This document shows, in pieces, positions 9,382-64,000 of a stretch of DNA of 64,000 nucleotides. Under the pieces are notes generated by a model that searched no databases, was not told the DNA's origin, and was given only the letters and a program-made list of their open reading frames with translations. The first letter of the stretch is position 1. The number at the start of each line of letters is the position of its first letter. A program made the translations under genes and the position numbers. The DNA is from an uncultured bacterium (lineage in GTDB: Bacteria; Spirochaetota; B62-G9; DRHN01). Where the stretch lies: the NCBI GenBank assembly GCA_965603595.1, contig CBFDDP010000003.1, positions 1,309 to 65,308 of the forward strand, in the 5' to 3' direction.

Positions 9382-10614
9382 ATGGTACAGATCAAGATGC
9401 CTGAGGCAGGTTTCAGCATTACAGAGGGAACGGTAATCGAATGGTACAAAGAAGTTGGGGACAGCATCAAAGAGGGAGAAAACGTGGTCTGCGTGGAGAC
9501 TGATAAGCTCGCAGTTGATATCCCGGCTGAAAGGAGTGGTGTGCTCAACGAAGTGAAGTACAGGGCGGGAGAGGTGGTGACTGTTGGTGAAGTGATGGGA
9601 ATCATGCTGGAGGGCGAGGAAAAACCGCCGGAAGCGGGGGATGAGGCTTTACCGAAGGCCGAAGCAGAGATTACCGGGGAATCAGTCCAGGTGAAGGAAA
9701 AAGCTCGGATGGAGGAGGGCAGAAAGATATCGCCTGCTGCCAAGGCTGTTGCACGGTCAAAGGGGATCGACCTTTCTCAGATAGTGACCGGCAGTGGCCC
9801 GCATGGCCGTATAGTGAAGCAGGATGTGATTGATTTTATTACACGGTATGATGTGGAGCGAAAAGAGACATTAGCGGCTCCAGCGGCTACGTCGAAAACG
9901 TCTGTTATGTCGACAGCCGGCGTCAAGCCCGGACAGAGGGTCGAATTTAAGGGCTGGAGAAAGGTCATTGCGGACCGCATGCTGGCCAGCAAGACCGAGA
10001 TACCACACTACACCATGTCCGTTGAGGCGGATGTCACCGAACTTTCGCACTTCATACAGCGTATACGCGAGCTGGAGGGTCTCAGAATCACATACCTCCC
10101 GTTTATGATGAAGGCCCTTGAGCACGGGATTCAGGAAGTGCCTATCGTCAATGCACATTGCGACGGAAAGGGTTTTACCGTTCTTGAAGAAATAAACATG
10201 GGTATAGCTATAGATCTTGGCGAGAAACTTCTTGTACCTGTGATCAAGGATATACGGAGCAAGTCCGTCCTTGAGCTGGTTGATGAGCTCGGGGTCCTGA
10301 TCAAAAAGACTCGGGACGAAAGGCTCGAACCTTCAGATGTGGAGGGTGGCACCATGACTCTCACCAACGTCGGGATGTTTCAAATCCATTCGGCTACGTC
10401 GGTGATACTACAGCCGCAGGTCTCGATCATCTATATGGGCACTGCACGGGAGGCCCCGGGAGTGCGGGACGGAAGGATAGAGATTCGTAAGAAGATGATA
10501 TGTGGTTCAACATTCGACCACAGGGTGGTGAACGGGGCTTCTGGAGGGAGGTTCCTCATGAAGGTAATGGAGTATCTAGAGGATATGGGGAGATTCGTTA
10601 TGCATCTCCGTTAA
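9382..10614 (+). CDS. Dihydrolipoamide acyltransferase E2 with a lipoyl domain
   Basis: The N-terminal lipoyl motif is VETDKLAVDIPAERSG. It also has a subunit-binding domain and a catalytic DHRVVNGASGGRF motif. Confidence 0.85.
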   Translation: MVQIKMPEAGFSITEGTVIEWYKEVGDSIKEGENVVCVETDKLAVDIPAERSGVLNEVKYRAGEVVTVGEVMGIMLEGEEKPPEAGDEALPKAEAEITGESVQVKEKARMEEGRKISPAAKAVARSKGIDLSQIVTGSGPHGRIVKQDVIDFITRYDVERKETLAAPAATSKTSVMSTAGVKPGQRVEFKGWRKVIADRMLASKTEIPHYTMSVEADVTELSHFIQRIRELEGLRITYLPFMMKALEHGIQEVPIVNAHCDGKGFTVLEEINMGIAIDLGEKLLVPVIKDIRSKSVLELVDELGVLIKKTRDERLEPSDVEGGTMTLTNVGMFQIHSATSVILQPQVSIIYMGTAREAPGVRDGRIEIRKKMICGSTFDHRVVNGASGGRFLMKVMEYLEDMGRFVMHLR

Positions 10615-10701
10615 CAGGCAAAGTTCCAGGAATGCGATGAAATCCTCGCAACAGTAACATGTGGAATAAACTGAAATGAAGGCGAAGGGGAGGAAAGGTC
10701 A

Positions 10702-25775: not shown

Positions 25776-25793
25776 ATAAGCCCCCTTAATCAA

Positions 25794-44704: not shown

Positions 44705-44728
44705 GTATCAGTATAACAGGGAAAGTCA

Positions 44729-45604
44729 ATGGAAATCTTTTTAGCGCAGCTGATTAATGCCATTGCTCTGGGAAGCGTGTACGCTCTTCTCGTAACGGGT
44801 TTCAATCTTTTGGTCGTGGTCGGGGGGATCTTTCCCTTTGCGTACTCGCACATCGTTGTGCTCTCCATGTATATGTGCTGGTTTGCAATGAAAATGACCG
44901 GAGATAATGCAGCGGTTGGAATCCTTGCCGGAGTTCTTTCAGGAACGGCATTCAGTTTCATTACAGAACCAGTGTTCAGGCCTCTGGCCAAGCGTGGTGC
45001 GGTACTCGGCTCCTTTATCGTGGCAATGGCATTGAGTTTAATCATAACAGAGATCATGGCGCAAAAACTGAACATGGGAATTGTGATAAGCTTTCCTCAG
45101 ACTTTTCAGGGAAAGGAAGCGCTTATACAATTCGGAACTGCCACGGTTACGGCGGGACAGATTGCCACTATTGTGGGAAGTATCGGTGCCGGGCTTGGGT
45201 TCTTTTATCTCCTCTATCGCACGAAACAGGGGAGAGCTTTTCGCGCGATGGGACAGAGCCCCTTTTCAGCAAGGCTTCTGGGTATTCCAATTGTTAAAAC
45301 AAGGATATATGCCTATCTCATTGCAGGTTTACTGGGAGGTATTTCGGCTGTCTTCCTGGCGATGGCCATTGGTACTGCTTCATCTTCCCTGGGGGACAAC
45401 CTGGCGCTCAAGGTAATGGCAGTTTCGATGCTTGCAGGCGTAGGAAATCTTGGAGGTGGCCTGGTCGCTGCACTCATTCTCGGTTTATCCGAGGGGATGG
45501 TGCTTGCCTATCTTCCGGGTGATTGGTCACAGGCCATTGCTTTTGGTATGATCATGGTTGTCGTTATGATCAGGCCGAAGGGACTCTTTGGTACCATGGC
45601 ATAG
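44729..45604 (+). CDS. Branched-chain-type ABC permease (LivH-like)
   Basis: Hydrophobic; 291 aa. Confidence 0.75.
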   Translation: MEIFLAQLINAIALGSVYALLVTGFNLLVVVGGIFPFAYSHIVVLSMYMCWFAMKMTGDNAAVGILAGVLSGTAFSFITEPVFRPLAKRGAVLGSFIVAMALSLIITEIMAQKLNMGIVISFPQTFQGKEALIQFGTATVTAGQIATIVGSIGAGLGFFYLLYRTKQGRAFRAMGQSPFSARLLGIPIVKTRIYAYLIAGLLGGISAVFLAMAIGTASSSLGDNLALKVMAVSMLAGVGNLGGGLVAALILGLSEGMVLAYLPGDWSQAIAFGMIMVVVMIRPKGLFGTMA

Positions 45605-45632
45605 GTATGTAAACAAAAGGAGAGCTGCCTGT

Positions 45633-46526
45633 ATGTCATTAAGTCTCTATTACTACTTTCAGCTCACTGCCATCTTTATTATGCTCGGCTGGACACTCTA
45701 CTGGATATATCGCATCGGGCAGCTGAATAATGCACCTATTGCAATTATGGCAATAGGTGCGTATCTCAGTTCCTACGCTGTACTGACGTGGGGGTGGCCC
45801 TTTGCAGCAGCCTTTGCATTCGCCGTGATATGCGGTGCGGTCTTTGCAGTTATTCCTGCTCTTGGCCTTGGACGCGCGCCCGCCTTTGCCATGGTAATAG
45901 CCACCATAGCGCTCATCTTCATAATGCAGACAGTATTCAGAAATCTTCCCTGGTTCGGGGGGGCATTAGGTTTGTTTGGCATCCCGAAGATCAAGAACCT
46001 GTTATGGATCACATACGGTTTTTTGATATTCTTCGGCATACTCATATACAGATTCGATCATTCGAGGTTGGGCAGGGCAGCAGACATCGTTTTTGAGGAT
46101 CGAGACGTGGCCAGCACATTGGGAATCAATATCTACCTGTTCAGCGTGTGTCTGCAGGTGATGACGGGCGTTATGGGTGCTGTTGCCGGTGTGCTCTATG
46201 CATTCACCATCAGGACCGTCATCCCCGTCTATTTTGGGTTTCCCTTCCTGCTTGCCATAACCACGTTCATATTTGTCGGTGGTTATACGACCATGTGGGG
46301 CGTCATAGTATTTACACCGATTCTCTGGGGAATACCGTTGATTCTCCCCGAATCCTTCGCCGCTTATCGAAATTTTATCTATGGGGTGCTTCTCATGGGA
46401 ACGCTCCTCCTGAGGTCCGAGGGAGCGATCGATAGAAGATTTCTTCGCTGGCTTCGTATACACGCAGAGCATGCGCTTGATAAGCTCACTCATAGGTGGA
46501 AAAAACTAAATCATGTAAGGGGGTGA
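45633..46526 (+). CDS. Branched-chain-type ABC permease (LivM-like)
   Basis: Hydrophobic. Starts at the ATG at 45633, inside the ORF-track frame. Confidence 0.7.
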   Translation: MSLSLYYYFQLTAIFIMLGWTLYWIYRIGQLNNAPIAIMAIGAYLSSYAVLTWGWPFAAAFAFAVICGAVFAVIPALGLGRAPAFAMVIATIALIFIMQTVFRNLPWFGGALGLFGIPKIKNLLWITYGFLIFFGILIYRFDHSRLGRAADIVFEDRDVASTLGINIYLFSVCLQVMTGVMGAVAGVLYAFTIRTVIPVYFGFPFLLAITTFIFVGGYTTMWGVIVFTPILWGIPLILPESFAAYRNFIYGVLLMGTLLLRSEGAIDRRFLRWLRIHAEHALDKLTHRWKKLNHVRG

Positions 46527-46600
46527 TAGCGAATTATGCAACACGTGCACCTTGGTATATGCTCAATCATGAGAGAATCTCAAAATGAGGAGGAGAAAAA

Positions 46601-47842
46601 ATGAAGGTTTTCAGGCTAACCTGTATTGCTCTTACAATAGTGCTTGCCGGTGCTTTTCTCTGTTTTGCCGGAAAGGGTGAAGAGGAACCAGCACCAGCGG
46701 TTGAAGAAGAGGAGGTTGAAGTCAAGGCAGCGGATGATGTATGGGTTGATGAGTGGGTATTCCCCTCGAGTAATATAATCACCGGTGTGAGTGCCTATCA
46801 CGGCATGCTGAATGAGTTTGGCGCTGATATGGCCATCGAGGAGATCAACAAGGCTGGTGGAATCAGGGGAAAGCCTGTGAGGGTCAGGTGGTACGATGAG
46901 GGAACACAGGATTCTGCGAGGGCTGTTGCTTCAATGAGTGCAATGATTGATACGGATCCACTCCTGGTTATGGGGCCCTGCAGTGACGTGAGTGTTCGTG
47001 CAGCCGTCCCACTTGCTGTTGAAGAGGGTGTGTACAGCATGTGTACATTGGCCGGATACCCCATGGCACGGGAGTTTGCGCCATACACTCTCTGCTTTTT
47101 GGCAAACGACAGGGACCAGTCAAGAGCGGCAGTGTACAAGTGGGTTGAGATCGTGCCCGGTATGAAGAAGGTCGTTCACTTTACTGCGCCGCAGAGTGGG
47201 ACCTGGATGAGCATTGCCGAGGCAGAGAACAGTGCGCTTCACGATCACGACATAGAAACGGTTGACATTGCTGTTCCCTACGATACCGTTAACTACGGTC
47301 CAATTGCCGTACGTGCTCTCGGCGAGAACCCGGATGGAATGATTTTTACGAGTCATCCTGAAGGTATTGCAAAGATAATCGTTGAGCTTCACAAACGCGG
47401 GTGGACCGACAAGTCAAAGTTTCTGCTCTCGCAGGCGGCTCCGGTCCCGGAGCTCTGGCAGATTGGGGAGGGGTACCTGGATGATTGTTACGTCTGGATG
47501 TGGTATGATCCCAATTCAACAAACCCGAGATGGCAGAATCTGTCAAAGCGTCACGAGGAGTCTTTTGGCTCCCCCGCATCATTCATGATGGTGTGGAAGG
47601 GGTATGATGAGCTCTACATCATCAAGAAGTGTTTCGAAGATCTCAAGATCACCGGGAATCCCGCAAAGCTGAAAGAGGAGAGGATTTCCATCAAAAATTA
47701 TATGAACAACTGCAGTTTTGAGAGCATCTTCGGTCATATGAAGATTGTTGATGGCGTACGGCTGAATCCGACGCTTCTCTTCACAATCGAGAACAACAGA
47801 CTGGGTGAAGTGCTCGTAGTGCCGCTTGATATCGCGATGTAA
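46601..47842 (+). CDS. Liv-type periplasmic substrate-binding protein (PBP type I)
   Basis: Signal peptide plus an LCFAGKGEEEP linker, then the family block EINKAGGIRGKPVRV. Confidence 0.7.
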   Translation: MKVFRLTCIALTIVLAGAFLCFAGKGEEEPAPAVEEEEVEVKAADDVWVDEWVFPSSNIITGVSAYHGMLNEFGADMAIEEINKAGGIRGKPVRVRWYDEGTQDSARAVASMSAMIDTDPLLVMGPCSDVSVRAAVPLAVEEGVYSMCTLAGYPMAREFAPYTLCFLANDRDQSRAAVYKWVEIVPGMKKVVHFTAPQSGTWMSIAEAENSALHDHDIETVDIAVPYDTVNYGPIAVRALGENPDGMIFTSHPEGIAKIIVELHKRGWTDKSKFLLSQAAPVPELWQIGEGYLDDCYVWMWYDPNSTNPRWQNLSKRHEESFGSPASFMMVWKGYDELYIIKKCFEDLKITGNPAKLKEERISIKNYMNNCSFESIFGHMKIVDGVRLNPTLLFTIENNRLGEVLVVPLDIAM

Positions 47843-50917: not shown

Positions 50918-52108
50918 ATGCAGGACAAAATGAGTTCAATGGAAAAATTCAATGAAACGGGAGATACGCTTGAAATATGGTGGGATTCATCTCCTCTGGT
51001 ATTTGATTCATGGAAGAAGGCTCGCATAAAGGCAAGGCCATTAAACGAAAGGGAGGCAGAGGAGGAGGTACTTGACAGGTATTATATATCTGATCGCCCA
51101 ATGGAGCAGCTTTTTCGGGGAGTTACCACGAATCCACCGTTATCAGGGGCTGTGATAAAGGATGACCCGGGGTTTTGGCGGGAGTGGGTTAGCGAGCAGA
51201 GGAGGAGAAATTCGAAAGCGAGTGTCAAAACGCTCTGGTGGATGATGTATAAGGAGATTGTGAAGCGAGGGGCAGAGAAATATCTTGGAGTATTCAGGCA
51301 ATCAGGATTCAAGTATGGATATTTGTCAGGTCAGGTAGATCCAAGGGAATATGAAAATGAAGAGACGATGAAGAGACAGGCTCTAGAACTTGCTGGCATG
51401 AACTCGAATATAATGATAAAGATACCAGGAACCGAACAGGGTGTGAGGGTATTGAGATATCTGACATCGAAGGGTATAGCAACAAACTGTACCCTTGCAT
51501 TTGTGTTACCGCAGTTTGTGGCAGTGGCCAAGGCCGTTAAAGAGGGGCTCGAAAAGGCAAAGAGCCATGGAGTGGACCTCAACCGCTGGAGAAGTGTGAT
51601 TACATCAATGACGGGGAGATATGAAGAGCTCGGTGATTTTGACAGGGAGGCTGAAAAGCTGGGGATGGAAATTACCGAGGCGGACAAGAGATGGGCAGGC
51701 ATCGCAATATTTAAAAAGGCGGTTAAGTATTTATCTGAAGGTGATTACCCGAGCAAAATGTTGATCTGTTCAATGAGACCCGGACCCGTGGTGGACGGAA
51801 AGAAGGAGCTCTGGCACTTTGAGAAGCTCGCGGGCGTGCATGCAGTGTTCACCTGCCCACCGAAATATATCAACCTCGTAGATGACGAGTACAGGGAGCT
51901 GGAGTATGATCCGGATGCATGGAAAGAGCCGGTTCCGGATGAGATTCTGGACAGGCTGAACAAGTTTCAGTACTTCAGGGAAGCGTATGATGCGGAGGGC
52001 ATGGAGCCCCCACAGTTCAACTCCCATCCTGCAACCATTGCAACGGCAAAATCATTCAGCAAGGCAACCGATGAGATGGAGAACTTTGTGAGGGAAGCTG
52101 TGCTGTGA
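50918..52108 (+). CDS. Transaldolase-family protein
   Basis: GVTTNPPL (TNP motif) and IMIKIPGTEQGVRVLRYLTSKGIATNCTLAF (K-containing block). Confidence 0.65.
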   Translation: MQDKMSSMEKFNETGDTLEIWWDSSPLVFDSWKKARIKARPLNEREAEEEVLDRYYISDRPMEQLFRGVTTNPPLSGAVIKDDPGFWREWVSEQRRRNSKASVKTLWWMMYKEIVKRGAEKYLGVFRQSGFKYGYLSGQVDPREYENEETMKRQALELAGMNSNIMIKIPGTEQGVRVLRYLTSKGIATNCTLAFVLPQFVAVAKAVKEGLEKAKSHGVDLNRWRSVITSMTGRYEELGDFDREAEKLGMEITEADKRWAGIAIFKKAVKYLSEGDYPSKMLICSMRPGPVVDGKKELWHFEKLAGVHAVFTCPPKYINLVDDEYRELEYDPDAWKEPVPDEILDRLNKFQYFREAYDAEGMEPPQFNSHPATIATAKSFSKATDEMENFVREAVL

Positions 52109-52911: not shown

Positions 52912-53071
52912 TTTATAAGAGGCCCCCTTTCAGTATATGTACATCATGCACAGAATATAGAAAAGTCTCAGTGCAAGGTATAGTGCAAATGGGAATGAAT
53001 TCCCTTGACTAAAAATGAACAATTTTGCATAATATGAAAAAATGTAATTCGAACCCATGAGTGGAGGGGCC

Positions 53072-54238
53072 ATGAGAAATTTTGAATTTCACAATCCAAC
53101 CAGGATCATTTTCGGTGAAAACAGGGTCAAGGAAATCGGTAAAGAGGCAAAGCAGTACGGCAAGAAATGCCTGATGGTCTACGGCAAGTCGAGCATCAAG
53201 AAGAACGACGTGTACGATACCGTCGTGAAATCGCTCAATGATGCGGGCATTACCTTTGTCGAGTATTCGGGTGTGAAGTCCAACCCGATACTGTCCCATG
53301 TACAGGGTGGCGTCGATCTTGCGAAAAAGGAAAAGGTCGATTTCATACTCGCTGTCGGTGGCGGGAGTGTGGTCGACGAGTCGAAGGCGATCGCTGCCGG
53401 GGCCATGATGGAGGGGAGTATCTGGGGCTTCCTGCTCGGCGACACCGAGGTAGGAGAGGCGCTTCCGTTACTGGATATTCTCACCATTCCAGCCACGGGC
53501 ACGGAAATGAATCCCACCTTTGTGGTAACCAATGATCAGACCACTGAAAAGGTCGGCCGCGGAAGCGATCCGCTCTTTCCAAAAGTGTCTGTACTCGATC
53601 CCACAGTGACTGTTACCATCCCGGCCGATTACACAGCATACTCCGCAGTTGATGCCATATCCCACCTCATCGAGGGCTACTTCACCGGTGAAGACAGCTG
53701 GACCCCCATTCAGGACGGTTATGTGGAAAACCTGGTCAAGACTATCATTGAGTGTACAGAGCGTATTCTTAAAGACCCCAGGGATTATCAGGGCCGTGCA
53801 ACCTTTATGTGGGCAGCGACCCTTGCATGGAACGGCCTGGGCCCTTCGGGCATCGGCGGCTGGGGCGTGCCCATGCACCTGATCGAGCACCCGCTGAGCG
53901 GTATTTACGATATTGCCCACGGTGCCGGCCTCTCCATCACCATACCGGCATGGCTGACATGGAAGGCTGAAAAGGACAGCTCGAAGATTGCCCAGTTCGG
54001 CCGCAACGTGTTTGGCATAGAGGAAAAGGATCAGGGCGCTGCGGCCAAAAAGGGCATAGAGGCTCTGAAAAGCTGGTTCGACAAGATCGGAAGCCCCGTC
54101 TCCTTCGCAAAGGCCGGCATCCCTGAATCTGACATTGACAGGATAACTGACATAGCGTGCAAACTTGCCGAGACCTGGGGGATGCAAAAGGAATACACGC
54201 GGGATGTCATCATTGAGCTCTACAGACTGTGTGTGTGA
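53072..54238 (+). CDS. Iron-containing alcohol dehydrogenase
   Basis: MRNFEFHNPTRIIFG...VGGGSVVDESKAIA. SD GAGTGGAGGGG lies before the ATG at 53072. Confidence 0.85.
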   Translation: MRNFEFHNPTRIIFGENRVKEIGKEAKQYGKKCLMVYGKSSIKKNDVYDTVVKSLNDAGITFVEYSGVKSNPILSHVQGGVDLAKKEKVDFILAVGGGSVVDESKAIAAGAMMEGSIWGFLLGDTEVGEALPLLDILTIPATGTEMNPTFVVTNDQTTEKVGRGSDPLFPKVSVLDPTVTVTIPADYTAYSAVDAISHLIEGYFTGEDSWTPIQDGYVENLVKTIIECTERILKDPRDYQGRATFMWAATLAWNGLGPSGIGGWGVPMHLIEHPLSGIYDIAHGAGLSITIPAWLTWKAEKDSSKIAQFGRNVFGIEEKDQGAAAKKGIEALKSWFDKIGSPVSFAKAGIPESDIDRITDIACKLAETWGMQKEYTRDVIIELYRLCV

Positions 54239-54345
54239 AGCCCCGGATACCTGCTCGAAGGATGGTTGACATTTTTAATGAATTCCTTAGGGTACGCCCG
54301 AGAAGTACATTGATGCACACGCTGTTCTGAAAGGAGTTGCATGTA

Positions 54346-57207
54346 ATGAGTGCACATAATCTGAAAATACTCCGTGTAAACATGCAGTCCCTCACAGCGG
54401 AGTATGAACCGCTTCCCGAGGAGTGGCTGCTCATCGGTGGCAGGGGCCTTGTGGCCCGTATCATGAACCGTGAAGTCCCCCCCGATGCAGACCCCTTTGG
54501 TGCACAGAACAGACTTATCTTTGCCTGTGGTCCCCTGGCGGGTACCAATGCCCCTCAGCTCGGAAGAATATCGGTGGGAGCAAAGAGCCCGCTGACACTG
54601 GGCATCAAGGAGGCGAATGCAGGAGGTCCGGCAGCACAGAAGCTCGACCGTCTCGGTATTCGGGCAATCATCGTTGAAGACATCCCTGAAAATGGAAAGC
54701 TCTACTGCCTGAAGGTCTCAAAGGGGGAGGCAGAACTCATAGCCGCTGATGAGTACAGGGAGATGAAGGTCTATGATCTGGTCCAACGGGTCTACGAGAA
54801 TGTGGACGGCAATCCCGCAATCATGGGTATCGGTGTGGCCGGGGAGAGGAAGTACAGGGGTGCATCCGTTTTTCTCACCGACATGTACGGCGACCCCTCC
54901 CGCAATGCAGGGCGGGGCGGACTCGGTGCTGTTATGGGCTCAAAGGGCCTCAAGGCTGTTCTCATCGACGATACAGGTTGCGCATTCCCGCCCCTGGCAG
55001 ATAAGGAGCTGTACAGGAACACGGTCCGCGACTGGGTCACTATGATCAAGAAGGATGTGGTGTGCGGGCTCTTTGCCACAGAAGGCACACCCTTCACCAT
55101 CGCCTCAAACAGCTATCAGGGTACCATGCCGGGAGACAATTACCGGACCGGGAGACCCCGGGACTTCGAAAAGGTTACAGGTGAGGTCACGCGGCGGAAG
55201 GTGTGGGAGCGGCATGGCAAGATGCATGCCTGTATGCCCGGCTGCGTTGTACAGTGCTCCATCATCTACTTTGATGAGCAGGGCCACAAGACCTCTGCCT
55301 ACGAGTATGAGGCGGTGAGTATGATCGGCACCAACCTGGGTATCGCCGACACCGACCGGGTGGCGCAGTTCAAACACATATGTGATGATCTGGGGGTCGA
55401 TTTTATAGAGATCGGTTCAGCCATCGGCGTTTCGGGTGAAGCGGGAAAGATGAAACCGGGAGACCCTGACACGGTCTTCGCACTGCTCGAGGAGATGGAG
55501 CGGGGGACAGAACTTGGACGCACTATAGGAAATGGAGTGGTGTCGGCCGCCAAAGCCTTCGGGGTGTCGCGGATCCCGGCTTTCAAGGGCCAGGCCCTGC
55601 CCGCACATGATCCCCGTGCAGTTAAGGCCATGGGTGTCACCTATGCAACCAGCCCCCAGGGTGCGGACCACACGGCCGGGCTAACCTACAGGCAGCCCCT
55701 TGAAAAGAAAGGGCAGGTGGTAAACTCTCTGCGATTTCAGCTCCGGGCTGCTGCCTGCGATACCTTCGGCTATTGCCTAAACTCGGTACCCGGAGGGCAG
55801 GCGTCGATTTACAGATTCGTGTCCGACCTCCTGAGAGCACGGTTCGGTGCGGACACTACGCCCGATGACATACTCGAGGTGGCAAAGCAGAACCTGCGCG
55901 ACGAGCTTAACTTCAACGAAAAGGCCGAGTTCAGCAGTGCTCACGATTCCTTTCCTGAATTTCTTAAAAACGAGCCTCTGCCGCCGACCGGGCATGTATT
56001 CGATGTCGAACAGTCGGAGATCGAAAAGATATGGGACCTCATGGAGGTGTACAGGGAGCCCGAGAAGATATGGGAGGTGCGTTTTCCCAAGGAGCCGCAA
56101 TTTCTCTTCGGTGTCGGGGTGTACAAAAAGATCGGCGCGCAGGCTGCGCGACGTGGCATGACAAAGGCGCAGATCATTGCAGATCCCGTTATGGAGAAAT
56201 TGGGAAAAACTGCTGAGATACGGGACATGCTCGAGGAAAGCGGTGTTGCCTCCGTCCTGTACACCCGGGTTGAGCCGGATCCGCCCGTGGATTCAATCGA
56301 GCGGGCAGCCAAATTCTACCAGGATAATGGATGCGACGGGCTCATCGCCATCGGCGGGGGAAGCTCCATTGACACGACAAAGGCCACTGCCGTCAGGGTG
56401 TCGCAAAGGGGACTTCTCAGGGAATTCGAGAATATGGTGGGCGGCAAGGCAAAGATCAAGCCGCCGCTTCCGCCGATCATAGCTGTTCCCACCACGTCGG
56501 GCACGGGTTCCGAGACAAACCAGTATGCAATCATCACCGACCCGGACCGGAACGTGAAGTTCACCATTATGAGTGATTACATGGTGCCGCGGCTTGCAGT
56601 GATCGACCCACTCATGTGCCGTACCATGCCTCCCTCAATCACCGCTGAGACTGGTATCGATGCACTCTCGCACTGTGTCGAGGGTTATGTGGGTATGAAC
56701 GAGGAGTACCACCCCTACTATGAGGCCCTCGCCCTCTACAGCGTGAAGCTCATAGGCAAAAGCCTGCGGCGGGCTTACAACGACGGTGACGACATTGAGG
56801 CTAGAAGGGACATGTGCATGGCCGCCGCGTTCGGCGGTATCGCCTTTACCAAGGGCCTTGCACTGGGACACGCTATTTCCCATGTCCTTGGCGCATTTTA
56901 CCATATCTCCCATGGAACCGGATGCGCCCTTGGCCTGCTCTGCCACGTGCGCTCGAACAGGGAGGTCTGCAGAGAGCAGTTCGAGGACCTTGCATGGGCT
57001 CTGGACCGCTCGAAGGATCTGGAGGATGCACTGCTCAGGCTCTACAGTGATCTGAAGATACCGGTTCGGATGAGGGAGGCTGGCATCAGGGAGAAAGATC
57101 TGGAACGGATCGGCTTCGAAGTATCCACGAACACGGTGAACCTGGCTGCAAATCCAAAAGCTCTCACAGAGCACAGGATACTGGAGCTTTTACGGGAATT
57201 TTATTAG
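54346..57207 (+). CDS. Fusion protein: aldehyde:ferredoxin oxidoreductase (tungsten AOR family) N-terminal part plus iron-containing alcohol dehydrogenase C-terminal part
   Basis: Residues 1 to ~580 match AOR: KILRVNM, ACGPLAGTNAP, GGLGAVMGSKGLKAV and a Cys cluster ACMPGCVVQC. Residues ~590-953 match Fe-ADH: GGGSSIDTTKATAV and HAISHVLG...HGTGCA. It is a single uninterrupted ORF. Confidence 0.75.
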   Translation: MSAHNLKILRVNMQSLTAEYEPLPEEWLLIGGRGLVARIMNREVPPDADPFGAQNRLIFACGPLAGTNAPQLGRISVGAKSPLTLGIKEANAGGPAAQKLDRLGIRAIIVEDIPENGKLYCLKVSKGEAELIAADEYREMKVYDLVQRVYENVDGNPAIMGIGVAGERKYRGASVFLTDMYGDPSRNAGRGGLGAVMGSKGLKAVLIDDTGCAFPPLADKELYRNTVRDWVTMIKKDVVCGLFATEGTPFTIASNSYQGTMPGDNYRTGRPRDFEKVTGEVTRRKVWERHGKMHACMPGCVVQCSIIYFDEQGHKTSAYEYEAVSMIGTNLGIADTDRVAQFKHICDDLGVDFIEIGSAIGVSGEAGKMKPGDPDTVFALLEEMERGTELGRTIGNGVVSAAKAFGVSRIPAFKGQALPAHDPRAVKAMGVTYATSPQGADHTAGLTYRQPLEKKGQVVNSLRFQLRAAACDTFGYCLNSVPGGQASIYRFVSDLLRARFGADTTPDDILEVAKQNLRDELNFNEKAEFSSAHDSFPEFLKNEPLPPTGHVFDVEQSEIEKIWDLMEVYREPEKIWEVRFPKEPQFLFGVGVYKKIGAQAARRGMTKAQIIADPVMEKLGKTAEIRDMLEESGVASVLYTRVEPDPPVDSIERAAKFYQDNGCDGLIAIGGGSSIDTTKATAVRVSQRGLLREFENMVGGKAKIKPPLPPIIAVPTTSGTGSETNQYAIITDPDRNVKFTIMSDYMVPRLAVIDPLMCRTMPPSITAETGIDALSHCVEGYVGMNEEYHPYYEALALYSVKLIGKSLRRAYNDGDDIEARRDMCMAAAFGGIAFTKGLALGHAISHVLGAFYHISHGTGCALGLLCHVRSNREVCREQFEDLAWALDRSKDLEDALLRLYSDLKIPVRMREAGIREKDLERIGFEVSTNTVNLAANPKALTEHRILELLREFY

Positions 57208-57262: not shown

Positions 57263-59548
57263 ATGAAAGAGATCGATGTCATGCCCTGTCATGATGAGCG
57301 GGCGACTTTGAAACTGCCGGAGATCGCACTGTATCGATACAATCCCGATCTGAAGGACGAGCTGGACAAGGGCATTATCACCAAAGACGAAGCCCTGAGG
57401 CTGTACAAGGCCATGATCATTCAGCGTGCCTTCGAGTACACCATCAGGGATCTTGACAGCAAGCGTTTCGTACCCTATGAGGGTTTCGAGTTTCGGGGTT
57501 CCACACACCTCAGTGTGGGGCAGGAGGCATCGCAGAGCGGTGCCGTCAGTGCGCTAACCAAGGACGACTACATCGCCGTGCATCACAGGGCACACGGGCA
57601 CTGTCTCGCCAAGGGGCTCTTCGCCTATTACGCGATGAGTGAAAAAGAGTTGAAGCAGGTGCTCAGCACGGCTGAGGAGAACGAGTTCGACGCTGGCGGA
57701 TACAAGGACCTCCTCGAAGCGGTTGTCGATTATCACCTCTACCGCATGATTGCAGAAGCACTGGGCATGCAGGCAGGCTACTGCCACGGCCGCGGCGGTG
57801 CAATGCATATAGCCGATTTTTCGGTGGGTCACCTGGGCGCCAATGCAATTGTCGGCGGTGGTTCGCCTATCGGCACCGGTGCAGCACTGGCCGCCTCTCT
57901 GCTCGAGGAGCAGAGGGTAGTGATCAACGCCTTCGGCGATGGCGCCATGAACAACGGAGTGGTCCACGAGTCCATGAACTTTGCCACCATGGCGCAGTTT
58001 GAGAAGGGTTTACCCGTAATCTTTTACGTTGAAAACAACCAGTACGGCATGACCGGACAGCAGAAGGGTGAGGTGACGAATATCGAGTATTTGTCCCAGC
58101 GCGGTGCTGCCTACAACGACGTGGCCATGCATGCTGAGACCATCTGCGGTATGAATATACTCACCGTTCGTGACGCTGTCAGGCGCGCCAAGGAGCTCTG
58201 CCTCAATGGAGAGGGACCGGTGCTCATCGAAGCGAACACCTACCGGTACTGGGGCCACAATTTCAAGGACAAGGGAACATCCTATCGGACGAACAAGGAA
58301 ACCGAGGCCTGGCAGACCCACGACCCGGTGGATTGGTACAAGAGAGAGCTCGAGGCAAATGACATCATCACCGTGGCTGAAGCTGACCAGATGTTCAACG
58401 AGATGCGCGAGAAGCTCAAGGAACTCACCATGATGGCTACGAAGAGCAGGTTTCCCGAGATCAAGGACATGGGGTGGGGCCTGTATGCCGATACAACTTC
58501 AGACAATGTCGGAGACGAGTACAGGACAAAAACCATACTCAAACCCTTCCGGAGAATCAAGAGGGACAGCGAGGGGATGCTGCTCGGCAGACATGCGGTA
58601 CTCGAGGCGCTCAACGAGGAGATGATGCGGGACTACAGAGTGGTAGTCTGGGGCGAGGATGTTGCCGCCTACGGCGGGGCCTATAACGCAACATTGGGAC
58701 TGTACGACACCTTCGGTCCAAAGCGCATCTTCAATGCCCCCATATCCGAAGCGGCTATCATTGGAACAGGGGTTGGCGCGGCCATGGCGGGGTTGCGGCC
58801 GGTTGTGGAGCTCATGTACATCGACTTCATCCTCATGGCCATGGATCAGGTGGGAAATCAGGCGGCCAAGACCAGGTACATGTTCGGTGGGCAGTCGGAT
58901 ATACCTTTCACCATCCGTACCACCATCGGTGGCGGCAAGGGATACGCGGGGCAGCATGCACAGAGCCTCGAGTCCATTGTCACGCAATTCCCCGGACTCA
59001 AGGTTGCCATTCCCTCCAATCCCTATGACCTGAAGGGTCTTCTGAAAACAGCGATCAGAGACGACAATCCGGTGTGCGTCATCGAGCATCAATGGGTGTA
59101 CCTGGAGAAAAATGTTGTTCCCGAAGAGGAATACACCATTCCCTTCGGACAGGCGAATGTGGTCAGGGAAGGCAAGGATATCACGGTGGTTGCCTACTCG
59201 CAGATGGTGAACATCACCAAGGAAGCTGCAGAGCTGCTCACACAGGAGGGTATCGATGTGGAGATTGTTGACCCGAGGACACTCGTACCGCTCGATGTGG
59301 AAACCATCACGAAGTCGGTGAAGAAGACTGGCCGGGGGGTGATCGTTACACAGGCGCCCTACACGGGAGGGTTCGCGAGCCATATCTCCCATGAGATTAC
59401 CAGGAACTGCTTCAGCGATATGAAATGCCCGGTGAGAATCGTGTCAGGGTACGATGTACCGCCGCCCATGTCCCATCCGCTCGAGGTGGAGAACATGCCC
59501 AACGCCGAGCGCATTGCTCGGGGTATCAAAGAGGCACTTGCGGAATAA
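57263..59548 (+). CDS. Fused E1 alpha-beta thiamine-diphosphate 2-oxoacid/acetoin-dehydrogenase-like component
   Basis: 761 aa. The alpha part reads GRGGAMH...FGDGAMNNG...FYVENNQYGM. The beta part reads RDYRVVVWGEDV...GGGKGYAGQHAQS. There is no stop between them. Confidence 0.8.
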   Translation: MKEIDVMPCHDERATLKLPEIALYRYNPDLKDELDKGIITKDEALRLYKAMIIQRAFEYTIRDLDSKRFVPYEGFEFRGSTHLSVGQEASQSGAVSALTKDDYIAVHHRAHGHCLAKGLFAYYAMSEKELKQVLSTAEENEFDAGGYKDLLEAVVDYHLYRMIAEALGMQAGYCHGRGGAMHIADFSVGHLGANAIVGGGSPIGTGAALAASLLEEQRVVINAFGDGAMNNGVVHESMNFATMAQFEKGLPVIFYVENNQYGMTGQQKGEVTNIEYLSQRGAAYNDVAMHAETICGMNILTVRDAVRRAKELCLNGEGPVLIEANTYRYWGHNFKDKGTSYRTNKETEAWQTHDPVDWYKRELEANDIITVAEADQMFNEMREKLKELTMMATKSRFPEIKDMGWGLYADTTSDNVGDEYRTKTILKPFRRIKRDSEGMLLGRHAVLEALNEEMMRDYRVVVWGEDVAAYGGAYNATLGLYDTFGPKRIFNAPISEAAIIGTGVGAAMAGLRPVVELMYIDFILMAMDQVGNQAAKTRYMFGGQSDIPFTIRTTIGGGKGYAGQHAQSLESIVTQFPGLKVAIPSNPYDLKGLLKTAIRDDNPVCVIEHQWVYLEKNVVPEEEYTIPFGQANVVREGKDITVVAYSQMVNITKEAAELLTQEGIDVEIVDPRTLVPLDVETITKSVKKTGRGVIVTQAPYTGGFASHISHEITRNCFSDMKCPVRIVSGYDVPPPMSHPLEVENMPNAERIARGIKEALAE

Positions 59549-59647
59549 CCCAATGCAGAAGCTGTGCATACCGGGAAAAGTGTCCACAGCTTCAAGTGTA
59601 CTTCTGTCTCTATTTCCTGATCTTTGGAAGAGGAGGAGCAGACTGCA

Positions 59648-60496
59648 ATGTCACTCAGCACCTTTCAAAAAATGCTTGCTGATGCAAAGGAGAGAAAATA
59701 CGCAATAGGCTCTTTCAATGCATGGGATGTGTATTCAGCGAAGAACATCACCCTCACCGCAGAGAAGATGCGTTCACCGGTTATCATTTCTCTCTGGCAG
59801 CCAGAGCTTGATTTTGCAGGCGAGAGGCAGCTCTACGAGCTCTGTGTTTCCTTTGCCGCTGCTGTCTCAGTGCCTGTGGCGATTTTCATAGATCATGCGA
59901 AGGATGTACAGGCTGTTGAAAGGGCTATCAGACTGGGAGCGACAAGTGTCATGATCGATGGTTCACATCTCCCGCTTGAGGAAAACATTGCACTCACGGC
60001 CCGGGCTGCAGAGTTAGCCCATAGTGCCGGTGTTTCAATTGAGGGTGAGATTGGTGTTCTGGGGGAAGAGGACGGCTCTGAGCCGGATGAAGCATTCTAC
60101 ACTGATGAGCATGAAGCGGAAGTTTTTGTGAGAGATACGGGGATAGATGCCTTGGCGGTAGCTATCGGAAATGCGCATGGTTACTATAAAAGAGCCCCCA
60201 GATTGGACCTTGATCGTCTGGCAGCAATAGGCTCGAGAGTTGATGTGCCCCTGGTGCTGCATGGCGGCTCCGGCATACCGCCGAATGATCTGCAGGCGGC
60301 TATTGACCGGGGGATCACCAAAGTCAATATCGGTGCTGAACCCCGCACTGCCTTCATGGACGGTTTACGGGAATCACTGGCGGAGGCAGACGAGAGTGAG
60401 AAGTTTCCTCACAGGATTTTTCCCCGTGCCCTTGAGCGCCATGCCCAGCTGATAGAGGAAAAAATGGTTTTGCTGGGTTCGGAAGGCAGGGGATGA
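59648..60496 (+). CDS. Class II ketose-bisphosphate aldolase (FbaA/GatY/KbaY family)
   Basis: MSLSTFQKMLADAKERKYAIGSFNAWD...FIDHAKD...GEIGVLGEEDG...VLHGGSG. Confidence 0.8.
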   Translation: MSLSTFQKMLADAKERKYAIGSFNAWDVYSAKNITLTAEKMRSPVIISLWQPELDFAGERQLYELCVSFAAAVSVPVAIFIDHAKDVQAVERAIRLGATSVMIDGSHLPLEENIALTARAAELAHSAGVSIEGEIGVLGEEDGSEPDEAFYTDEHEAEVFVRDTGIDALAVAIGNAHGYYKRAPRLDLDRLAAIGSRVDVPLVLHGGSGIPPNDLQAAIDRGITKVNIGAEPRTAFMDGLRESLAEADESEKFPHRIFPRALERHAQLIEEKMVLLGSEGRG

Positions 60497-60585
60497 TGAT
60501 CTAATGAAATCGAGAAGTGCTTCAATGGGTGCATCGAGGTGCTTTTCGTTTACTGAATTGATGGTCTCAATGAAAGGATTGATGG

Positions 60586-61290
60586 ATGCAACAGAGCAGG
60601 GGATCTATAGATTTTGAACCTCCCTATGAGGAATTCACAGCTCCAGCCATACGAAAAGTCATCGCACAGAGGCTGCTCGAGAGCAAACTGACTATCCCGC
60701 ACTTCTATCTCTTCGATGAAATTGATATGGAGGAAGCGGCGCTGCTGCGCGGTGAGCTGAACAGCATGAAGATCAGCTTCAACGATATGATCGTGAAAGC
60801 CGTGACAGTGGCACTGGAAATGCACCCCGAGTGCAACGTCTCCTATGCTGACGGTAAGATCCGCCGGTATCTGGAGATCAACATCAACATCGCTGTGGCC
60901 ATAGAGGGTGGCCTGCTCGTACCGGTTCTGAGAAACTGCAGGGGAAAGAGCCTCTCTGACATCAGCCGGGAAACAAAGGAGATTGTTCAGAAGGCACGAA
61001 ACAGGAAGCTCCGCCCCCATGAGGGACTGGGGGGAACCTTCACCATCTCGAATCTCGGTGTATTCGGTCTGGACGGGTCCTTCTCCATCATCAATCCTCC
61101 CCAGGCTATGATATGTACGACAGGAGCTATCAAGGAAATGCCCGTGGTGAGAGAGGGCAGCCTCGCTGTGGGGACAAGAATGAAGGTGACGCTTTCATGT
61201 GACCACCGGGCGGTTGACGGTGCTGTGGGCGCCCTGTTCCTTGCGGATCTCAGGAAGATACTCGAAAATCCACGGGAATACCTCGTTTAG
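60586..61290 (+). CDS. Stand-alone 2-oxoacid dehydrogenase acyltransferase (E2) catalytic domain with no lipoyl domain
   Basis: 234 aa ending ...SCDHRAVDGAVGALFL. Only 90 bp of non-coding sequence lie upstream, with no lipoyl or subunit-binding domain. Confidence 0.75.
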   Translation: MQQSRGSIDFEPPYEEFTAPAIRKVIAQRLLESKLTIPHFYLFDEIDMEEAALLRGELNSMKISFNDMIVKAVTVALEMHPECNVSYADGKIRRYLEININIAVAIEGGLLVPVLRNCRGKSLSDISRETKEIVQKARNRKLRPHEGLGGTFTISNLGVFGLDGSFSIINPPQAMICTTGAIKEMPVVREGSLAVGTRMKVTLSCDHRAVDGAVGALFLADLRKILENPREYLV

Positions 61291-61317
61291 ACGTGAATCG
61301 GAATCGAGGCTGAACAG

Positions 61318-62280
61318 ATGAATGAACTTGAAATGGAAAAACTGCTCCCCAAGATTGCACATCTCTACTATCTGGAGGACATGAATCAGGACAAGATCGC
61401 GGAAAAGTTCAACATCAACAGGGTCAGGGTCTCCAGGTACCTGAAAAAGGCACGCGAGATGAATATCGTTGAGATCAAGGTGAACTACTCCAAGGAGAGC
61501 TATCAGGAGCTCGAGCGGTGCATCGAGAAACGCTACGGCCTGAAGGAGTGCATCGTTATTCCCACCCACGACAACGTCCAGGGGATATTTCAGGAACTTG
61601 CGACGAGCCTTACGGGCGTGCTGAATCGTATTCTCAGGGACGGCGACAGCATCGGCGTGAACTGGGGTCTTACGCTCAAGGAGGTTATAGCCCTCATGGA
61701 CTCTCCGAAGCAGATCGATGTCAAGGTTGTACCCATGTGCGGGGGCCTGGGCAGGATCGAGCGGGGAATTCACACAAACTCAATAGCCAAATCCCTGGCC
61801 GATGTTTTCGGCGGCATCAGTTATGTGATCAATGCTCCTGCAATCCTCGACAGTAAAAAAACCAAGGAGGTGCTGCTGGAGGACAGTAACACGAAAGAGA
61901 TCTTTGAGCTGCTGAAGGGTCTGAGATGTGCCGTCTTCAGTTTCAGTGATCTGGGACCCGAGTCATCCTATGTCAAGTACGGGCTTTTCAGCAATGAAGA
62001 GATCGAGTATCTCAGGAGCAGGGGGATTGTAGGTGACGTGAACCTCGACTTTCTCGACAGAGAGGGCGCACATGTGCCCAACAAAATATACGACAGGGTC
62101 ATCGCCCTGCCGATTTCCGAGATAGTCAAGATACACAATGTGGTAGGCATCGCCTATGGCCTGAGAAAGGTGGAAATAGCAAGGGCCGTACTGCGTGGAA
62201 ATATTTTCGATATACTCGTTATAGACCTGGAGCTCGCGGAAGCAATGATTTCAGGTGTTGGTTCTGAGGGGGACAGCTGA
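61318..62280 (+). CDS. SorC-family sugar-binding transcriptional regulator
   Basis: N-terminal HTH region LYYLEDMNQDKIAEKFNINRVRVSRYLKKARE, and a C-terminal sugar-binding (CggR/DeoR-Bsu-like) domain. Confidence 0.8.
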   Translation: MNELEMEKLLPKIAHLYYLEDMNQDKIAEKFNINRVRVSRYLKKAREMNIVEIKVNYSKESYQELERCIEKRYGLKECIVIPTHDNVQGIFQELATSLTGVLNRILRDGDSIGVNWGLTLKEVIALMDSPKQIDVKVVPMCGGLGRIERGIHTNSIAKSLADVFGGISYVINAPAILDSKKTKEVLLEDSNTKEIFELLKGLRCAVFSFSDLGPESSYVKYGLFSNEEIEYLRSRGIVGDVNLDFLDREGAHVPNKIYDRVIALPISEIVKIHNVVGIAYGLRKVEIARAVLRGNIFDILVIDLELAEAMISGVGSEGDS

Positions 62281-62327
62281 GCAATATGCCATCCTTCAGC
62301 GTGATGAAAGGGAGGAAGAAATTGCAC

Positions 62328-63875
62328 ATGTCCGATTATCTCGTTGGTATCGATGTGGGAACTACCGGTGCAAAGGCGCTCGTTGTGGATCTCAAGGGGA
62401 ACCTTCTCGGCAGCGGTTACCGGGAATACCCCTGTTTATACCCGAAGCCGAACTGGGTGGAGCAGGATGCAGAGCTCGTCATACAGAAGACCTTCGAGGC
62501 CTGCCGCGAAGCCCTTGCCAACTCAGGTATCGATCCTAAGAAGGTCATCTCAGTCGGTTTCTCCACACAGAGAGCCACATTCTGTCTTCTAGATGGCGAC
62601 ATGTCGGTTATAGGCGGAAACTTTTACGGCTGGCAGGACAACCGGGCCCTCTCGGAGATGGAGTACATTGAGTCAAAGATACCTGCCCGCGAGCTGTATC
62701 AGATCCTCGGCATGCCCATTACACCAACATTCTCATTTTCCAAGGTAATCTGGATCATGCGTAACGACCCGCAGCGGTATGAGAAGGCGCGGTATATCTC
62801 ACTCATGCCAGATTATGTGCTGTACCGTTTCGGTGCAGATGAGTTCTGCTGCGAGGTCACCAATGCATGCTGTTCGAGCCTCATCGATGTGCATGAGCTC
62901 CGCTGGTCTGAAAAAATCATCGAGACCTATGGCATCGACCGGGAAAAGTTGCCGCCTCTCGTGAAACCCGGAACCCTGGTGGGCAAGATCACCGAAGAGG
63001 TTTCGGAGCGTACGGGACTCGCAGAGGGTACGCCCATCAGTACGGGAACGGGCGATCAGCAGTGCGCAGCGATCGGTGCGGGTGTCGTCAAACCAGGGTT
63101 TGCCGAACTCACACTCGGCACCTCGGGAGTACTCGTTGTGGCCACAGAGAAGCCGGTGCTTCCCGAAAGCGGCATCATGATGGTGCCGGCTTCAGGTGCG
63201 TGGGGTCTGTACGATGTGGAGGGGATACAGCTGGGTGCGGCAAGCAGCTATCGATGGCTCAGAGACGAGCTCGGAGGTCTTGAGCGGGCCTGGGGAGATG
63301 ACATCGGGGAGAATCCCTACGCCCTTATGGAGCAGCATGTGCGAAAGAGCCCTGTCGGCGCCAATGGCATCGTCTTTCTCCCCTTTCTGAACGGCTCTGG
63401 ATGTCCCTACTGGGATGTGCATGCAAAGGGGGTCTTCGCCGGGCTTACCTTTGCCCACACGAAGAGTGATCTTGTCCGGGCGGTTATGGAGGGCATTACC
63501 CTGGAGGCCAAGGATATTTACCGGGCCATGCAGGATATCGGCGTCGAAATCAAAAGGCTGGCAACAACAGGAGGAGCTGCAAACTCACCTGCATGGCAGC
63601 AGGTCATGGCAGATATGTTCGATGTTGAGATCTACAAGCTGAAGGTGTCGGAGGCCACAACCCTCGGTGCTGCGATACTTGGTGGTGTGGGTGCCGGTGT
63701 GTTCAGGGATGCAGCAGAGGGTGTTTCGCATATCGTGCACTACGAGGAGGCTATCCTACCCATCAGAGAGCATGTCGAGAAATATGATGGACTCTACGAC
63801 GTGTATCGAAATATCCACGGAGCTCTCACGGAGCACGGGAGCTACAAAATGCTTTCGAATATGCAGGGAGCGTGA
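62328..63875 (+). CDS. FGGY-family carbohydrate kinase (xylulokinase-like), intact
   Basis: MSDYLVGIDVGTTGAK...GTGDQQCAAIGAG...TTGGAANSPAWQQVMADMF. SD AAAGGGAGG lies upstream. Confidence 0.85.
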   Translation: MSDYLVGIDVGTTGAKALVVDLKGNLLGSGYREYPCLYPKPNWVEQDAELVIQKTFEACREALANSGIDPKKVISVGFSTQRATFCLLDGDMSVIGGNFYGWQDNRALSEMEYIESKIPARELYQILGMPITPTFSFSKVIWIMRNDPQRYEKARYISLMPDYVLYRFGADEFCCEVTNACCSSLIDVHELRWSEKIIETYGIDREKLPPLVKPGTLVGKITEEVSERTGLAEGTPISTGTGDQQCAAIGAGVVKPGFAELTLGTSGVLVVATEKPVLPESGIMMVPASGAWGLYDVEGIQLGAASSYRWLRDELGGLERAWGDDIGENPYALMEQHVRKSPVGANGIVFLPFLNGSGCPYWDVHAKGVFAGLTFAHTKSDLVRAVMEGITLEAKDIYRAMQDIGVEIKRLATTGGAANSPAWQQVMADMFDVEIYKLKVSEATTLGAAILGGVGAGVFRDAAEGVSHIVHYEEAILPIREHVEKYDGLYDVYRNIHGALTEHGSYKMLSNMQGA

Positions 63876-64000
63876 GTGGTCGGAGAGAAAGGAGCGGTGG
63901 AGTTTGACGAGGAGTGATAATCGGGGGTCTGTCCCGGAGCTTCATTCGGTGACAGATCTCGTGGACATTGCAGGGGCCATGAAGGCGTCCACCGTGGTAA

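Follow-up and report, generated by a model that had tools for sequence, protein, structure and literature searches.

A fused E1 and a core-only E2 in an uncultured spirochaete suggest a lipoate-dependent dehydrogenase with its lipoyl carrier in trans

A 64,000-nucleotide (nt) stretch of DNA from an uncultured bacterium of the Spirochaetota (contig CBFDDP010000003.1 of assembly GCA_965603595.1, positions 1,309 to 65,308; hereafter the window) carries near its end a cassette of five genes (57263-63875), which encodes a thiamine-dependent E1 with its alpha and beta halves in one chain and an E2 acyltransferase that consists of the catalytic core only. We favor the reading, to which we give a probability of roughly 55%, that these proteins belong to a lipoate-dependent dehydrogenase whose lipoyl carrier would act in trans and whose acyl-coenzyme A (acyl-CoA) product would enter substrate-level phosphorylation, with a pyruvate-type 2-oxoacid as the most likely substrate and an acyloin as a possible one. 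The architectural part of this reading appears well supported by comparative genomics, in which 81 non-redundant loci were compared using BLAST against a reference set, de novo clustering and hidden Markov models (HMMs). Loci and contigs are designated below by L and a number.

All five open reading frames (ORFs) of the cassette lie on the + strand, with intergenic gaps of 75, 89, 27 and 5 nt; their common orientation, tight spacing and Pfam identities agree with an earlier reading of the window made from its letters only (the sequence-only reading). Annotation here means Pfam and NCBIfam searches of plausible window ORFs of at least 150 amino acids (aa), antisense ORFs nested in called genes being excluded. 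The first gene (57263..59548) encodes the 761-aa E1, in which PF00676 (residues 154-400), PF02779 (443-609) and PF02780 (629-751) are found in one chain, and the alpha-beta fusion proposed in the sequence-only reading is thereby borne out. It is followed by a member of the class II ketose-bisphosphate aldolase family (59624..60496; a 290-aa ORF for which gene callers place the start at 59648 or 59672; PF01116, E = 1e-85), which passes only the broad TIGR00167 subfamily model and is under every equivalog cut-off of NCBIfam. Separated from E1 by this aldolase gene, the E2 core is an ORF of its own (60586..61290, 234 aa) with PF00198 alone (residues 15-233). The last two genes encode a 320-aa SorC-family regulator (61318..62280; PF04198 and an N-terminal helix-turn-helix), whose top NCBIfam match is the B. 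subtilis-type DeoR (197 bits, under the cut-off), and an FGGY sugar kinase (62286..63875; a 529-aa ORF, or 515 aa from the likely start at 62328; FGGY_N and FGGY_C), whose top NCBIfam match is XylB (345 bits, below the cut-off of 380).

Both halves of the fused E1, as well as the E2, appear to be closest to pyruvate dehydrogenase (PDH)-type proteins. The beta half falls in the NCBIfam PDH E1-beta subfamily (347 bits; cut-off, 321) and gives its best alignment with the PDH E1beta of G. stearothermophilus (267 bits), and the best partner of the alpha half is human PDHA1 (154 bits, versus 61-78 bits with the alpha subunit of the branched-chain 2-oxoacid dehydrogenase, BCKDH). The thiamine diphosphate (ThDP) motif is GDG225...NNQ258. 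Two histidines, H332 (in YRYWGHN, the YRYxGH motif of the alpha half) and H565 (in AGQHAQS, aligned to beta-His128 of 1w85_B), are invariant in an alignment of 12 sequences of 60-100% identity; in alpha2beta2 E1 enzymes these histidines act in the reductive acylation of lipoamide. An insertion of about 40 aa after HRAHGH108-113 (the HRGHGH motif in the family) is present family-wide. The possibility that this insertion serves for recognition of the H protein GcvH, or marks the split architecture, is unsupported, since members with a canonical lipoyl-E2 and E3 carry it as well. The fused E1 is present at at least 502 loci in species-representative genomes, distributed among Spirochaetota, Armatimonadota, Planctomycetota, Zipacnadia, Bacillota, KSB1, WS1, Actinomycetota and others, and the nearest relatives of the window protein come from uncultured Spirochaetota (77-85% identity).

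The core-only form of E2 is shared by about 100 clusters (at 90% identity) that are 52-100% identical to the window protein, all of them 172-313 aa long (most 228-257) and with PF00198 alone; lipoyl-bearing or full-length relatives show up only at 54% identity or less. Because so many clusters share this length and this single domain, the truncation is real and no artefact of assembly or annotation. An exhaustive search of 50%-identity representatives returned one core-only representative (395 bits) and then matches of at most 233 bits, mostly full-length E2s of 400-560 aa. The core-only E2s form a tight, derived clade that branched from PDH-type E2s. The window E2 keeps the catalytic His/Asp motif DHRAVDG (206) and the conserved Ser in SNLG (155), aligns over its whole length with the human PDH E2 core 3b8k_A (190 bits, versus 94-120 bits with BCKDH E2), and is nearest in NCBIfam to the mitochondrial-type PDH E2. 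Its catalytic domain begins at about residue 15 of 234, and Pfam detects no PF02817 subunit-binding domain in it. A lipoyl HMM was negative on the E2 ORF and on all six frames of the cassette, where just 89 nt lie between the aldolase stop and the E2 start. The description of this E2 as a catalytic domain without lipoyl or E3-binding domain in the sequence-only reading is thus upheld, and a missed in-frame lipoyl domain, which that reading had left open, is ruled out.

In the window as a whole, the lipoyl HMM (all ORFs of at least 70 aa, six frames) matched solely the E2 at 9382..10614 (+ strand; PF00364, PF02817 and PF00198), a canonical E2 and a candidate lipoyl donor in trans. It is part of a canonical set (8383-11679) with the unusual order E1-beta, E2 (lipoyl, subunit-binding and catalytic domains), E1-alpha, which is flanked by two GntR/UTRA regulators that are paralogs of each other (63% identity) and adjoins a sugar ABC transporter. 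No E3 was found in the 64 kb, either as a class-I disulfide-reductase motif in any ORF or as Pyr_redox_2 in the Pfam and NCBIfam scans, in agreement with the sequence-only reading; because the canonical lipoyl-E2 set has no E3 beside it either, this absence is uninformative. Nor did the annotation scans find GCV_H, lipoate ligase or lipoate synthase, and GcvH was not detected in the window by tblastn with two E1-linked GcvH proteins or by a GcvH HMM. As had been argued before, a textbook tethered complex cannot be built from the cassette genes alone, with an E2 lacking lipoyl and subunit-binding domains and no E3. The sequence-only reading had proposed either lipoyl supplied in trans, perhaps by the E2 at 9382-10614, or a direct mechanism. 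Comparative data favor supply in trans, for which there are both GcvH genes beside the fused E1 (eight loci and 15 contigs) and the precedent of OdhA, and the E2 at 9382-10614 stays a candidate donor; no positive evidence was found for a lipoyl-free mechanism. The carrier in the window genome, we infer, could be an unlinked GcvH or the lipoyl domain of that E2.

A free GcvH gene adjoins the fused E1 in eight loci of Spirochaetota and Bacillota (L009, L010, L020, L022, L023, L026, L030 and L053). These GcvH proteins keep the lipoyl-lysine motif ESVK (CMK in L030), and that of L009, the one tested, passes the curated GcvH models. Because the sole nearby E2 in L010, L020, L022 and L023 is core-only, there is no lipoyl domain nearby to which such a GcvH could relay. 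The E1-linked GcvH clade comprises about 22 clusters by homolog search, and both sampled members are located directly 3′ of a fused E1 on 15 of the 15 distinct further metagenome contigs shown. Two candidates were discarded: the GcvH gene of Planctomycetota L044 is an ordinary gcvH, its next gene being gcvPA (387 bits with 1wyt_A), and an E2-core homolog (P0015) and an E1-linked GcvH (P0242) that seemed to share one 53,501-bp contig come from different samples, the equal size being coincidental.

Four kinds of neighborhood can be distinguished around the fused E1, of which that of the window's own clade is described further below. Spirochaetota paralogs at 64-68% identity show the order GntR, VOC, long transaldolase, E1, GcvH, or the order E1, E2 core, GcvH. 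In Armatimonadota, Eubacteriales, KSB1 and Bacillota (about 53% identity), E1 is followed by a thiolase, a zinc-dependent alcohol dehydrogenase (Zn-ADH) and an MtlD-like dehydrogenase, or by an MtlD-like dehydrogenase and an E2 core. In Planctomycetota, Victivallales and Actinomycetota (44-52% identity), DeoR and E3 genes on the opposite strand precede E1 and an E2 that bears one lipoyl domain or two, and genes for a Zn-ADH, an FGGY kinase and a PHP-domain protein often lie 3′ of the lipoyl-E2. Such a lipoyl-E2 is found 3′ of the fused E1 in L044, L054, L061, L067, L087 and L091, and an E3 near it in L044, L062, L067 and L091. Because homologs at 44-52% identity adjoin both partners, the fused-E1 family is predicted to be lipoate-dependent and to work with lipoamide and E3. 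The sequence-only reading had held that the same cassette beside an E3 and a lipoyl-E2, with an assigned function, would speak against its proposal; the two genes do adjoin these homologs, to which no function is assigned.

The window cuts the operon to which the cassette belongs. In the same-species contigs L001-L004, which extend past the window end, the kinase gene is followed by the gene for a 705-aa fusion, next by a 161-aa ORF, and then by two genes for glycyl-radical enzymes, the first accompanied by its activase gene. The cassette is larger than five genes: upstream it includes a fusion of aldehyde:ferredoxin oxidoreductase (AFOR) with an iron-dependent alcohol dehydrogenase (Fe-ADH) and probably a separate Fe-ADH, and downstream a fusion of phosphate butyryltransferase and butyrate kinase (Ptb-Buk). 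The AFOR-Fe-ADH gene (54337..57207, + strand) is a 956-aa ORF (953 aa by gene callers) with AFOR_N, AFOR_C, Fe-ADH and ADH_Fe_C in one chain; the AFOR is of the tungsten type, and its fusion suggests channelled interconversion of acid, aldehyde and alcohol. No description of this fusion was found in a literature search. Its orthologs (66-79% identity) are located immediately 5′ of the fused E1 in L011, L012, L014, L015 and L153. The separate Fe-ADH (53057..54238, + strand; 393 aa; PF00465 and PF25137), possibly the first gene of the operon, keeps its position in L001-L004. The best sigma-70-like site of the region lies just 5′ of it (53005-53033), in a scan whose site count is not above chance, and the promoter and terminator scans for operon boundaries likewise gave counts not above chance. 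At the other end, the first 32 codons of Ptb-Buk run off the window (63904..64000, + strand), and 31 of the 32 residues match the protein encoded at L001:13319-15433. The C-terminal half of Ptb-Buk (705-718 aa in full) passes butyrate-kinase models (362 bits versus a cut-off of 222, and 321 versus 289), and its N-terminal half matches Ptb with 165 bits, under the cut-off; an initial assignment as Pta-AckA was rejected, since NCBIfam assigns Ptb-Buk.

Among the relatives, the operon of this clade consists of AFOR-Fe-ADH, fused E1, core-only E2, SorC, Ptb-Buk, the 161-aa ORF and a long E. coli-type Pta with AAA_26, DRTGG and PTA_PTB domains, and its core was found in L013, L015, L099-L103 and L153/L154. 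Every relative with an E2 of 70-86% identity has this same operon, and the SorC regulator is retained 3′ of E2 in all relatives of the window clade. Departures are seen in L012, which has no E2 (its metagenome-assembled genome has an orphan E2 core on a different contig, L005), and in L011 and L014, in which the operon tail is replaced by genes for a D-2-hydroxyacid dehydrogenase and a hexokinase-family protein. For the 161-aa ORF after Ptb-Buk, neither PDB nor NCBIfam gave a significant match, and it is unrelated to another 161-aa ORF that follows the E1-linked GcvH, with which homology had been considered. The two glycyl-radical enzymes, which with the activase follow the operon just beyond the window end (L001:15946-19446 and L002:17870-18974), are of the PFL2/glycerol-dehydratase family and below all curated equivalog cut-offs.

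The class II aldolase and FGGY kinase genes are absent from the operon of the E2 relatives mentioned above, L013, L015, L099-L103 and L153 among them, and occur within it solely in the window species and a 91% relative (L114/L115). They are recent, lineage-specific insertions, which probably couple a sugar to the module and would not be partners of the E1 chemistry. Since both genes are inserted and lie outside the conserved operon, nothing ties E1 to a product of this aldolase or kinase.

The reaction sequence that we envisage runs as follows. The fused E1 with ThDP would cleave a 2-oxo compound, most likely a pyruvate-type 2-oxoacid and possibly an acetoin-like acyloin, and would reductively acylate a lipoyl-lysine. 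The lipoyl group would be carried by a separate protein, either a free GcvH-type H protein or possibly the lipoyl domain of the E2 at 9382-10614, from whose dihydrolipoyl form the stand-alone E2 core would transfer the acyl group to CoA, and an E3 encoded elsewhere would reoxidize the carrier. Ptb-Buk and Pta would then convert acyl-CoA via acyl-phosphate to the acid and ATP, and AFOR-Fe-ADH may interconvert acid or aldehyde with alcohol for redox balance. The Buk domain, which is above curated cut-offs, and the long Pta downstream fit an acyl-CoA product. A pyruvate-type 2-oxoacid is favored as substrate because the E1 halves and E2 are closest to PDH, because a long Pta follows the operon, and because in L011 and L014 genes for a 2-hydroxyacid dehydrogenase and a hexokinase-family protein stand in place of the tail.

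Several observations weigh against this proposal. Neither the window nor the 10 kb around the cassette in the closest relatives contains a gene for GcvH, E3 or lipoate handling, and a GcvH-type carrier in the window lineage would be an extrapolation from paralogous clades with 64-68% E1 identity. Adjacency of GcvH could instead reflect a lipoyl-relay role or plain glycine cleavage. In about nine loci (including L029, L030, L031, L036, L046, L048, L055 and L070) a thiolase of about 413 aa directly follows the fused E1 in the position of E2, which the proposal leaves without explanation; in such loci the thiolase may replace E2 as the acyl-to-CoA transferase, and L030 has GcvH alongside it. Polyol dehydrogenases, sugar kinases and sugar transporters are neighbors throughout the family, which speaks against pyruvate as the substrate of many paralogs. 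Since the downstream fusion has a kinase domain of the butyrate-kinase type, the acyl group may be other than acetyl; in free-living spirochaetes, branched-chain amino acids are fermented via a branched-chain acyl kinase. Finally, every catalytic activity ascribed to the fused E1 and core-only E2 family is read from sequence.

Among the alternatives, cleavage of an acetoin-type acyloin fares best, though we think it considerably less probable than a 2-oxoacid route. Here the substrate of E1 would be an alpha-hydroxyketone (acetoin, for instance, or a methyl ketol derived from a sugar), whose cleavage would yield an aldehyde and an acyl-lipoyl group on a carrier in trans; the aldehyde would go to AFOR-Fe-ADH, and the acyl-CoA to Ptb-Buk or Pta. 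A single substrate would then account for an aldehyde-handling enzyme and phosphotransacylases in the same operon. Zn-ADH and short-chain dehydrogenase/reductase (SDR) genes, of the butanediol and polyol dehydrogenase families, are the commonest neighbors after E2, and genes for acetaldehyde-forming DeoC and RpiB lie immediately 5′ of the cassette in L015. However, no acetoin-specific model or marker was matched, and a D-2-hydroxyacid dehydrogenase, an enzyme that forms or uses up a 2-oxoacid, is encoded after the operon in L011 and L014. The sequence affinities do not separate acetoin-type from PDH-type E1, the comparison having contained no acetoin E1.

It is also conceivable, at somewhat longer odds still, that the swinging arm for the fused E1 and core-only E2 is the lipoyl domain of the canonical E2 (9382-10614), without involvement of GcvH. 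This is the sole lipoyl domain in the 64 kb, GcvH is missing both from the window and from the surroundings of the cassette in the closest relatives, and the arrangement has an experimental precedent in Corynebacterium OdhA, whose lipoyl-less E2 domain depends on the lipoyl residues of AceF. The two window systems are distant from each other, however, with E2 catalytic domains 34% and E1 alpha halves 27% identical, and they lie 47 kb apart under different regulators. In the paralogous clades the co-localized carrier is GcvH, not a second E2. The selectivity of E1 also tells against borrowing, E1 enzymes being normally selective for their cognate lipoyl domain.

The sequence-only reading had taken the five genes as a unit, in which E1 would cleave a phosphorylated ketose or an acetoin-like product of the aldolase. 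In the direct form of this reading, the ketose would be the product of the FGGY kinase and aldolase, and the acyl group would pass straight from thiamine to CoA on the lipoyl-less E2. This we regard as very improbable: the kinase, aldolase, E1 and E2 genes are co-oriented, closely spaced and presumably co-transcribed in the window, and in the wider family genes for FGGY kinases, class II aldolases and sugar regulators are repeatedly found close to the fused E1, but the aldolase and kinase genes are missing from the operon of the other clade relatives, FGGY kinases near other fused E1 genes are no orthologs (21-37% identity to the window kinase), the family retains the residues for lipoamide acylation and is paired elsewhere with lipoyl-E2, E3 or GcvH, and we know of no E2 that accepts an acyl group directly from ThDP. 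The likeness to tetritol and erythrulose gene clusters is not supported either: it rests on generic families (SorC, FGGY, RpiB and a TIM-barrel isomerase), and the kinase and aldolase are not conserved with E1 and E2. The nearest non-orthologous relatives of the window kinase (59-60% identity) are followed by DeoC-type aldolases.

Returning to the lipoate-dependent dehydrogenase with its carrier in trans, we compared the cassette with known systems. It shares with the PDH and other 2-oxoacid dehydrogenase complexes with alpha2beta2 E1 (G. stearothermophilus, human) the E1 domains, the ThDP motif and both active-site histidines, and its E2 core has the DHRxxDG motif and is about 50% identical to the human one. 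Unlike in these complexes, E1 is one chain with the family-specific insertion, E2 has no lipoyl or subunit-binding domain and hence no swinging arm and no docking site for E1 or E3, and the operon has no E3. Because a tethered lipoyl domain and a subunit-binding domain were looked for and are lacking, the cassette would not be classed as a canonical complex. The glycine cleavage system likewise has an untethered carrier that visits separate enzymes, and in relatives of the cassette a free H protein is encoded directly after E1; the partners are a ThDP-dependent E1 and an E2 acyltransferase, however, not a pyridoxal phosphate-dependent P protein and a T protein, and the window has no H protein. 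The actinobacterial OdhA/Kgd (an E2o-E1o fusion) also has a lipoyl-less E2 catalytic domain and lipoyl groups on another protein, and the window pairs a lipoyl-less E2 core with a separate lipoyl-E2 (9382-10614) as in OdhA-type borrowing. OdhA joins its E2 domain to a homodimer-type E1o in one chain and draws on the lipoyl groups of AceF within a mixed supercomplex, whereas the cassette encodes E2 as a separate protein and E1 as an alpha-beta fusion, and GcvH is the likely donor in relatives.

Two further comparisons concern the metabolic setting. The ptb-buk-bkd clusters of Enterococcus and Bacillus, which lead from a 2-oxoacid via acyl-CoA and acyl-phosphate to ATP, similarly combine E1 and E2 of the 2-oxoacid dehydrogenase type with phosphate butyryltransferase and butyrate kinase. 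The cassette differs in that its Ptb and Buk form one chain, its E1 and E2 resemble PDH more than BCKDH, an lpdV-type E3 and a lipoyl domain are missing, and the AFOR-Fe-ADH fusion and a long Pta are added. The acetoin dehydrogenase system (AcoA/B/C/L), which yields an aldehyde and acyl-CoA, also has a PDH-like alpha/beta E1 in catabolic operons with alcohol or diol dehydrogenases; the cassette has neither a lipoyl-bearing AcoC nor AcoL. Taken together, the cassette comes closest to a combination of PDH chemistry and the free-carrier principle of glycine cleavage, and OdhA is the nearest experimentally studied case of lipoyl supply in trans. A literature search, whose coverage left out most subscription-journal papers, returned no account of a system that combines a fused E1, a core-only E2 and GcvH.

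Several Spirochaetota were observed to have two fused-E1 paralogs per metagenome-assembled genome in different sugar or polyol contexts (L015/L021, L019/L025 and L016/L027). Such pairs fit trans-acting E2 and carrier proteins that are shared. We tentatively raise the idea, although the odds are against it, that fused-E1 paralogs in different catabolic operons share one diffusible GcvH-type carrier and one free E2 core. If this is true, uncultured anaerobes would carry out 2-oxoacid or ketol dehydrogenation without a complex, in the manner of glycine cleavage, and the idea would explain the several fused-E1 paralogs per genome, the orphan E2 core, and the thiolase in the E2 position in some phyla.

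Other features were noted in the neighborhoods of the family. The window contains a divergent 396-aa protein of the long transaldolase/FSA family (50918..52108, + strand; PF00923, E = 1.6e-27, far under the NCBIfam cut-offs), orthologs of which (72-76% identity) are encoded immediately 5′ of the fused E1-GcvH pair in L009, L024, L026 and L092-L094. Genes of the URO-D family (PF01208, a fold that includes MtaA-like methyltransferases) are located beside the E1-GcvH pair, near orphan E2 cores and after FGGY kinases (L009, L018, L030, L092-L113; L005-L008; L119-L125, L133, L134, L143, L150). In L005 the orphan E2 core is near URO-D and a B12-binding protein, and the FGGY kinases encoded directly 5′ of URO-D genes are 39-42% identical to the window kinase. 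In L009, L026 and L095-L097, fused E1, GcvH and URO-D are followed by a UPF0261 gene that is paired with a single PEP_hydrolase-like gene or two, and by a Liv-type ABC transporter of the type found at 43228-47842 in the window.

Elsewhere in the window, two deoxyribose-phosphate aldolase genes are found in the regions 708-2138 and 31978-32688, one with a 75-aa N-terminal extension and with RpiB encoded 5′ of it; it is orthologs of this RpiB-DeoC pair (72% identical) that stand immediately 5′ of the cassette in L015. Three C_GCAxxG_C_C "putative redox-active" proteins (6720-7289, 25143-25793 on the - strand, and 39143-39829) are encoded among sugar-catabolic genes. A 247-aa ORF (34333-35076) matches only the FGGY_N end and part of FGGY_C and is probably a truncated or pseudogenized sugar kinase. 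No riboswitch or other known RNA of Rfam was matched in the window.

Textbooks present the 2-oxoacid dehydrogenases as the model of a swinging arm tethered within a giant complex. The labels "pyruvate dehydrogenase E2" and "2-oxoisovalerate dehydrogenase E1" under which such genes are annotated are misleading, since they imply complete canonical complexes. If the proposal is true, the arm has been cut from E2, E1 has been fused, and an H protein has been recruited as a free carrier, so that the chemistry would need no complex and GcvH would have a new metabolic role. It would also give uncultured fermenters among the Spirochaetota, Armatimonadota and others a further, PDH-like way of making acyl-CoA and ATP.

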